The notes beneath the pieces are model-generated. The model was not told the origin of the DNA, searched no databases, and worked only from the letters and a program-made list of their open reading frames with translations. The position numbers and the translations under genes were made by a program. 64,000 bases of DNA from Eledone cirrhosa (taxonomy: Eukaryota), in assembly GCA_964016885.1 (NCBI GenBank), contig CAXHJY010000995.1, positions 12,892 to 76,891 on the forward strand, given 5' to 3'. Every line of letters begins with the position of its first letter. The first letter of the stretch is position 1. Below are positions 2,712 to 2,920 of the stretch, in pieces.

Positions 2712-2920
2712 TAACGAAGGAAACGTGGTAAGGAACCAGGTGGACCATAACGCACCAAAGTACTCAATACTTAGGGTAGTAGAGTGGGTAATAGGAACGA
2801 GTAGGACCCCGACGGCTGAGCTCAAAGCCGTTTTGACGGCTAATTCTGGACTCTGGACAGTCCAGAATTAGCCGTCGAAACGGCTTGAGCTCAGCCGTCG
2901 GGGTCCTACTCGTTCCTATT
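2712..2920 (-). mobile_element. Hairpin element, copy C, in (TA)n
   Basis: ~80-nt one-sided tail with gtactcaatac, plus ~60-bp inverted arms at 2790-2851 / 2860-2920; nearly identical to 13001-13199. Confidence 0.7.

Follow-up and report, generated by a model that had tools for sequence, protein, structure and literature searches.

A high-copy fold-back element around a stem-II-like hairpin in the (TA)n tracts of Eledone cirrhosa, of likely Penelope-type origin

The DNA that was analysed, a stretch of 64,000 nucleotides of Eledone cirrhosa contig CAXHJY010000995.1 (hereafter the window), is rich in microsatellites and interspersed repeats. These include a young tRNA-headed SINE of around 330 bp, whose copies at 7429-7766, 12349-12667, 31184-31522, 35709-36020, 44023-44469 and 62265-62603 are 91-98% alike, and minisatellite arrays at 16786-17376 (units of ~56 bp), 19094-19588 (26-52 bp), 31780-32191 (76 bp), 40284-41244 (48 bp) and 54652-56646 (35 bp). 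Broken frames that by eye look like pieces of LINE reverse transcriptase/endonuclease are found at 6464-7147 and 10763-11512 (both minus strand, neither with a Pfam match) and at 36046-36506 (plus strand). Two exon-like stretches on the plus strand, at about 46780-46870 and 56690-56850, resemble parts of a SERCA-type calcium pump.

The element under study (copy A) occupies positions 2712-2921, between a TA tract at 2677-2711 and another one at 2922-2940. Its positions 2789-2921 constitute a fold-back of 62-63 bp. A single substitution and a single inserted base in 63 set its two arms (2789-2851 and 2860-2921) apart. The spacer at the inversion centre (2852-2859) is 7 nt longer than in the copy at 13000 and its length differs between contigs. 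The folding energy of -137.6 kcal/mol compares to -55.95 +/- 4.55 in shuffled sequences (z = -18; none of 200 as good). Attached to the long arm only is a tail of 77 nt (2712-2788), which runs into (TA)n, seen as (AT)n in the reads, and which contains a hairpin of the form CTC-stem-loop-stem-TT-GAG-TAC (2760-2784, minus strand) that matches a descriptor. As the inverted repeat is limited to 2789-2921 and the 77-nt tail end has no partner, the element does not have the terminal inverted repeats of a MITE or other TIR DNA transposon. Read on the plus strand, the right arm consists of a stem, GAAA (2877-2880), a stem of 4-5 bp with its loop (stem III, 2881-2897), GUC (2897-2899) and a G-rich strand, and it finishes in TAT, followed by (TA)n. 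Read on the minus strand, the left arm holds the putative 3' strand of stem II, the GAAA position, stem III, GUC (2813-2811) and the 3' strand of stem I; its GAAA position (2834-2831) reads AAAA, here as well as in the 13000 copy, and 4,858 reads keep the GAAA form at this place. The hexamer pair GACGGC/GCCGTC occurs several times in the arms. The layout that the original prediction had described for 2712-2920 is thus indeed in place within (TA)n, with near-perfect arms and with GAAA, stem III and GUC, and the hairpin of about 60 bp that it had placed on the loop of stem II does fold back at, or right beside, a stem-II-like hairpin.

Within the window we found five relatives of copy A. Copy B (13000-13204, minus strand) belongs to the same subfamily, with 93.9% identity over 213 columns and a centre of one base, and like copy A it has (TA)n on both sides. 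Copy E (about 15975-16157, minus strand) represents another subfamily, with an inner stem of 9 bp and a non-palindromic loop of 7 nt. In copies C (about 705-852, minus strand) and D (2531-2673, plus strand) the centre is deleted, and copy F (about 8540-8650, plus strand) is an old fragment that has lost most of the inverted arm. Relatives had been predicted at all of these places and are found there, but the copies at 705, 2531 and 8545 do not share the layout entirely, as they are without the central stem. We read them as probable tip deletions of the 15975 type, so that they do not count as independent inversion centres. The arms of the old copies have diverged from one another. Copies D and E have (TA)n on at least one side. 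An inverted, 5'-truncated copy combined with a tail at one end only was met in copies A, B, C, D and E and in the ends of reads, and the short arm of copies A, B and E ends 3-7 nt short of the tail hairpin, to be followed by (TA)n. Copies D and A stand tail to tail around the TA tract at 2677-2711 that their tails have in common, which creates an extra inverted repeat with arms of ~100 bp (2531-2925).

The window also contains two decayed type I hammerheads, on the plus strand and of another family than copy A. At 12744-12839 (motif 12744-12782) the tail motif GTATTGAGTAC follows 46 nt after the cleavage site, whereas at 972-1001 the tail motif (1418-1428) lies behind an insertion of around 370 bp. 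That the tail motif follows both hammerheads, as had been proposed, therefore holds, for the 972 element only beyond the insertion; that both are ordinary hammerheads does not, as each has decayed and shows one core mismatch. The insertion (1040-1410) has short inverted ends, an 8-bp near-duplication (6 of 8 alike) and a piece of SINE inside. It looks hAT-like, and the repeat near 1140 matches an octopus SINE. Since at both decayed hammerheads the tail motif is found downstream on the same strand, the RNA strand of element A must be the minus strand, which means that the direct copy is the left arm, and that the right arm is inverted and tail-less. The half-ribozyme that had been read from the right arm is present there, but the order of the arms is the reverse of what that reading implied, and it is the direct arm that carries AAAA in the 2712 and 13000 copies.

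The motif GTATTGAGTAC is present seven times in the window (0.11 expected; no such count in 100 shuffles): three times in the family of copy A, once behind each of the decayed hammerheads (972 and 12744), and once in each of the two members of another family (44731 and 62130). The tail-hairpin descriptor, which was made after the motif had been seen, finds five sites in the window versus 0.3 in 50 shuffles. In copy A this hairpin ends in GAGTAC and lies 40 nt after the putative GUC cleavage site, as compared to about 46-60 nt behind real hammerheads. The second, small family with the same tail hairpin (44690-44830 and 62090-62215, both minus strand) also ends in (TA)n. The tails of its two members are 89% alike, and an inner hairpin segment of 46 nt is 91% alike and stands in opposite orientation relative to the tail. 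In the orientation at 44.7 kb a single base separates TTGATAA from GAAA, and a long hairpin and a closing stem follow; a stem II is missing. TTGATAA is the U3-A8 variant of the core (PMC4209133).

Reads and contigs were aligned to 2712-2920 at 80% likeness. In this way, 24,402 of the 12,467,656 reads of sequencing run X24 were recovered, as well as 18,943 of the 16,285,364 contigs of run X1. The family is very abundant, the counts giving no copy number, as X24 is a RAD library and its molecule ends pile up at the two AATT sites of the element (2845 and 2866). X4 and X9 yielded only 3 and 5 contigs and X7 none, which is too few for any claim on host range. The ends are fixed: at the short end (AT)n starts behind 2919 in 3,525 reads and 91 contigs, in a sister subfamily it starts behind 2907 in 1,342 reads, and at the tail end it precedes 2725 in 1,490 reads. 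High copy number and fixed ends bear out the suggestion that the hairpins constitute a short repeat family of their own. A run search recovered 17 rows in 12 studies that contain part of the stretch; there was no RNA run among the matches listed, and these have no bearing on expression.

Whether the arms hold a true ribozyme remnant has to be judged on part of the motif. Stems I and II pair in any palindrome, and consequently neither their pairing nor their covariation provides independent evidence; of the half of a type I hammerhead recognised originally, GAAA, stem III and GUC are confirmed, while stems I and II follow from the inversion itself. The independent evidence thus consists of the unit GAAA-stem III-UH, its place relative to the tail and the likeness to Penelope ribozymes. 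At 2877-2899 we found GAAA, a stem III with an A15.1-U16.1 pair and a UH site, and the A15.1-U16.1 place is taken by an A-U or G-U pair in nine of the ten arms that have letters there. GAAA with four Watson-Crick pairs and UH was recovered in 69 of 20,000 arm shuffles, a test made after the motif had been seen; the same motif was found in 16 when five pairs were demanded and in 307 when G-U was allowed. Stem III is 85% paired over 11 related arms, with a covariation score that was reached by 188 of 500 shuffles. Furthermore, the half-hammerhead lies on the tail strand, at a distance where real hammerheads lie. A core 1 of type I (CUGANGA or UUGANAA between stems I and II) is absent from the window copies: exact CTGANGA was not found in the eight window elements scanned, nor with one mismatch in copies A and B. 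No Rfam hammerhead reached the gathering score in the window, and at E values up to 10 within 1-17000 there was again no hammerhead, mostly miRNA-type hairpin matches below the gathering score; these searches also missed both decayed hammerheads. A strict hammerhead descriptor gave no match in the fold-back family, and a relaxed one, besides recovering both decayed motifs, picked up another exact core (63248) and two matches that are not convincing. The site at 63248-63295 (plus strand) has an exact CTGATGA core, two possible GAAA partners and an AT-rich stem, and the 68 bp downstream of it are 78% alike to 62199-62270. A permuted hammerhead, with CUGANGA downstream (for permuted types see PMC10085705), was considered and rejected, as the tail has only CTGGTGA in two of six copies and no GAAA after it. 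We put the chance that the arm descends from a hammerhead at about two in three; the half-hammerhead is probably real.

The inversion centres offer a second view on the origin of the fold-back. Among contigs of the 2712 subfamily the length of the centre differs by 1-11 nt. At the centre of copy E, 50 of 1,637 X1 contigs continue into the mirror arm, with the loop kept once, and in 57 the loop seems to be present in both arms, which is our reading of a consensus at 0.43 agreement. Junctions are therefore heterogeneous in and around the stem II loop. Junction types differ within subfamilies, and the subfamilies have their own diagnostic arms. A shared centre on stem II, as expected originally, is correct as to the place, but the centres vary and many reads carry a partner strand that is not a mirror at all. 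Of the 2,888 X24 reads on the centre of copy E, 1,982 depart into one conserved sequence, at 16107 (1,453), 16106 (304) or 16104 (225), with an agreement of 0.66-0.8 and a median of ~70 loose letters; in this RAD library a few loci may dominate. In X1, 55 and 85 of the 1,637 contigs leave at 16107 and 16106, and only the 55 have a similar consensus. They leave just after the loop, and the departing sequence is neither the mirror arm nor a strand of stem I and CUGANGA. By eye, its 30-letter consensus pairs with the stem through G-U pairs and has a GCCGTT that is able to pair with the start of stem III. It carries seven to eight extra letters, CTAATACT, exactly at the place of the core. These are 5/8 alike to CTGATGAT, which is common in Hydra ribozymes; the match is weak and there is no stem I partner before it. 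The best reading of the non-mirror strand is that of a diverged old arm in which a decayed core may persist, and not that of the intact parent that had been predicted. At the tip of the 2712 subfamily, non-mirror continuations were found in 98 X1 contigs, two X4 contigs and one X9 contig. Here, as among the loose ends at the centre of copy E, a CUGANGA-bearing parent beside this stem was looked for and none was found among the matches listed. Within the window, no copy of the non-mirror strand stands out from chance, and a twister reading of it was ruled out by eye against the twister consensus. The 20-letter arm pattern had no match in viral contigs, and its two matches in metagenome contigs were dismissed, both being the same GC-rich stretch with no other likeness. 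No match to RT or GIY-YIG was obtained in the 123 of 263 frames that lie near copies, in a scan that also missed evident LINE fragments.

The nearest likeness is found among the Penelope-like elements, as had been proposed. An inverted, 5'-truncated copy with a tail on one side is the described layout of endonuclease-bearing Penelope elements (PMC8557442; PMC3846280). The tail hairpin, the (TA)n target and the one-sided tail together make it likely that the fold-back consists of the 3' end of a Hydra-type Penelope element plus an inverted copy. The Penelope-type origin is therefore supported, and narrowed to a likely link with the Hydra clade, drawn from non-coding traits. The Hydra clade, which is recognised by its protein motifs (RWK, DKT and CxCX5C, with no CCHH) and by RT phylogeny, has a C-terminal endonuclease (EN+; Craig et al. 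2021, PMC8557442), and almost all of its families combine (TA)n insertion with canonical hammerheads; one family is from Octopus bimaculoides. Insertion into (TA)n is as seen here, a preference that is not exclusive as Naiads have it too. A Naiad origin was considered on this account and set aside: in the portion of the PMC8557442 supplement covered, the arm and tail motifs are unmatched in the octopus Naiad consensi, where line breaks in the source may hide matches. Also shared with the Hydra clade are a type I hammerhead, here a putative half, which lies close to the 3' end and has up to about 8 bp in its stem II, and, in some of the consensi, a tail hairpin behind it. By eye, a hairpin like that of copy A (CTC-stem-loop-stem-NN-GAGCAC) is clear in two of six Hydra consensi, ~60 nt (Hydra-2_Amil) and ~52 nt (Hydra-2_Ajap) past the cleavage site, loose in Hydra-1_Crog and not visible in the other three; its use as a Hydra marker is a trait found in this analysis and not a published defining trait. 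A 9-letter core of the tail motif has three matches elsewhere in the portion of the PMC8557442 supplement covered, and all three fall outside the Hydra and octopus Naiad consensi. In Hydra-1_Obim CTAG/CTAG closes the long stem II, whose loop begins with TTC, and the centre of copy E is alike. In contrast to the Hydra elements described in PMC8557442, the fold-back has no reading frame and is missing core 1. Its tail of about 70-77 nt (about 75 nt on the whole) exceeds the 30-40 bp described for EN+ Penelope-like insertions, and its stem III of 4-5 bp with a loop of 7-9 nt exceeds the 3-4 bp and 0-3 nt of the Hydra ribozymes listed.

Other systems resemble the fold-back in part. In the Penelope pLTRs of Adineta vaga the direct copy likewise exceeds its head-to-head inverted copy in length, and one side has a tail (Arkhipova et al. 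2013, PMC3846280), and palindromes at the inverted junctions were read as self-priming; no ribozyme is mentioned in the passages of that paper covered. There, however, the inverted repeat flanks a full element, whereas the insert studied here measures 210 bp in all and has a junction palindrome that resembles stem II of a ribozyme. The minimal type I hammerheads of metazoan Penelope elements (Cervera and de la Pena 2014, PMC4209133) have a long helix II, a G10.1-C11.1 pair and a palindromic loop 3, as here, and occur as motif pairs on opposite strands 100-700 bp apart; those motifs are whole, whereas the fold-back has two halves around a common stem II and lacks CUGANGA. For PAc Poseidon, a member of another clade, both strands were cut and extended at AT-rich DNA in vitro, and insertion took place without a need for ribozyme cleavage (Frangieh et al. 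2024, PMC11167929). This anole Penelope protein starts at two internal sites that bracket the tail, which is reminiscent of the two ends seen here; inverted junctions are not treated in the portion of PMC11167929 covered. Animal non-LTR retrozymes (bioRxiv 10.64898/2026.07.22.740005) are similarly non-coding, likely Penelope-dependent and hammerhead-related. They form head-to-tail arrays with complete ribozymes, unlike the elements in the window, which are single fold-backs that lack core 1.

Taken together, we consider it somewhat more probable than otherwise that copy A is a high-copy fold-back in (TA)n that stems from the 3' end of a Hydra-clade Penelope-like retrotransposon or of a non-coding dependant of it, and in which a tailed direct copy and a tail-less inverted copy are joined at the hairpin of hammerhead stem II. 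A Penelope GIY-YIG endonuclease would cut both strands of a TA tract, after which one cut end would prime cDNA synthesis at the far start site, giving the long arm with its tail, and the other end would prime 3-7 nt ahead of the tail hairpin, at a second start site, giving the short arm. Both cDNAs would be of the same polarity, and hence could anneal only where the RNA is self-complementary, which is what stem II supplies. Copying would stop at stem II and the cDNAs would pair via stem II or via a palindrome in or beside its loop. CUGANGA, located just 5' of stem II, would then be left uncopied and be replaced by the mirror of GAAA-stem III-GUC. Products without core 1 are predicted not to self-cleave as monomers; of the catalytic death assumed originally, the absence of core 1 is observed in every window copy and the loss of self-cleavage is itself predicted. 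Later deletions may have taken the tip from the old copies, and part of the finished hairpins may be transcribed and then recopied in one piece. Priming from two ends predicts a fixed short end in (TA)n, loss of CUGANGA and scattered junctions in and around loop II, all of which are seen.

The original prediction offered a different route, in which a few events of cDNA snap-back or quasi-palindrome correction created the hairpin, which was then copied as a unit, as a non-autonomous element that borrows Penelope enzymes. We regard this as doubtful, with a modest chance of being right. Copies A and B share the type of centre, both ends and, at the GAAA position, one asymmetry that few reads show, the subfamilies have diagnostic arms, and the conserved non-mirror strand may represent a diverged old arm that spread to many loci, all in line with copying of ready-made hairpins; yet the asymmetry concerns a single CpG site that may have decayed twice, junction types vary within subfamilies, and a reverse transcriptase would have to read through a duplex of 62 bp. 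Snap-back on stem II is matched by copy E, which keeps the loop once, as that model predicts. Snap-back alone should, however, copy through the tail, and it leaves unexplained why the short arm of copies A, B and E stops before the tail hairpin and meets (TA)n. For the short arm, two cDNAs that start from both cut ends and anneal at stem II would therefore be the better account, and priming from two ends and copying of ready-made hairpins can coexist.

The remaining explanations dispense with stem II, with Penelope enzymes or with the element itself. A Penelope-type stump could have gained the appearance of a half-hammerhead as a by-product of repeated fold-backs with nested GACGGC/GCCGTC stems, GAAA being between two of these by chance. 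The several hexamer pairs, the lack of a parent among the matches listed and of covariation in stem III, and the automatic pairing of stems I and II would fit this. It is nevertheless unlikely given the rarity of the motif in shuffles (the 69 of 20,000 above, likewise counted once the motif was known), its place on the tail strand at the distance of real hammerheads and the resemblance of its stem II to that of Hydra-1_Obim. A non-autonomous DNA element that targets TA tracts (a MITE, or one that is Helentron-like or replicated by a rolling hairpin) would account for a long DNA hairpin with fixed ends and TA flanks, and for the flipped inner segment of the second tail-sharing family (44.7 kb versus 62.1 kb), but its two termini do not form an inverted repeat and the tail motif is common to hammerhead-bearing elements and Hydra consensi, which renders this origin quite improbable. 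Finally, it is hardly credible that the hairpins are fold-back artefacts of sequencing or assembly. Read depth does fall at the tip, and no contig among the matches listed spans all 209 bases. Against this, the 3,525 short reads that join the tail-less arm to (TA)n are independent, the dip in RAD depth coincides with the molecule ends at the AATT sites 2845 and 2866, and the arms of old copies have diverged from each other.

Returning to the reading that we prefer, i.e. a Penelope-type fold-back joined at stem II, parts of it are in print: inverted tailed stumps and self-priming at junction palindromes (PMC3846280), and hammerhead pairs on opposite strands (PMC4209133). The idea had been put forward as undescribed. 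This holds for fold-backs that have their centre on the stem II of a hammerhead and have lost core 1, of which we found no report in the open literature (Repbase, subscription journals and bioRxiv supplements may hold this family), but not for self-priming at the junction, which was proposed in PMC3846280. The main text of the 2026 O. vulgaris repeat paper, in the part covered, makes no mention of hammerhead, hairpin or palindrome. The making of the inverted 5' ends of Penelope elements and the role of their hammerheads have both been called open (PMC8557442 and PMC11167929 among the sources). A tentative extension, which we would sooner doubt than accept, is that stem II either joins two cDNAs or folds one back and that the resulting core-less hairpins have become self-propagating, SINE-like dependants of Hydra elements in the octopus genome, which would retain nothing but the tail hairpin as a signal for copying and could do without self-cleavage; the non-mirror relative would then be an older master with a decayed core relic. 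If the hairpins are only dead stumps, they are ordinary Penelope debris and repeat libraries should relabel them accordingly. If, on the other hand, stem II is the joint in thousands of short copies, the genome constitutes a large natural record of junctions, which could separate two-ended priming from snap-back and could show whether the ribozyme fold matters to these elements as a structure rather than as a catalyst.
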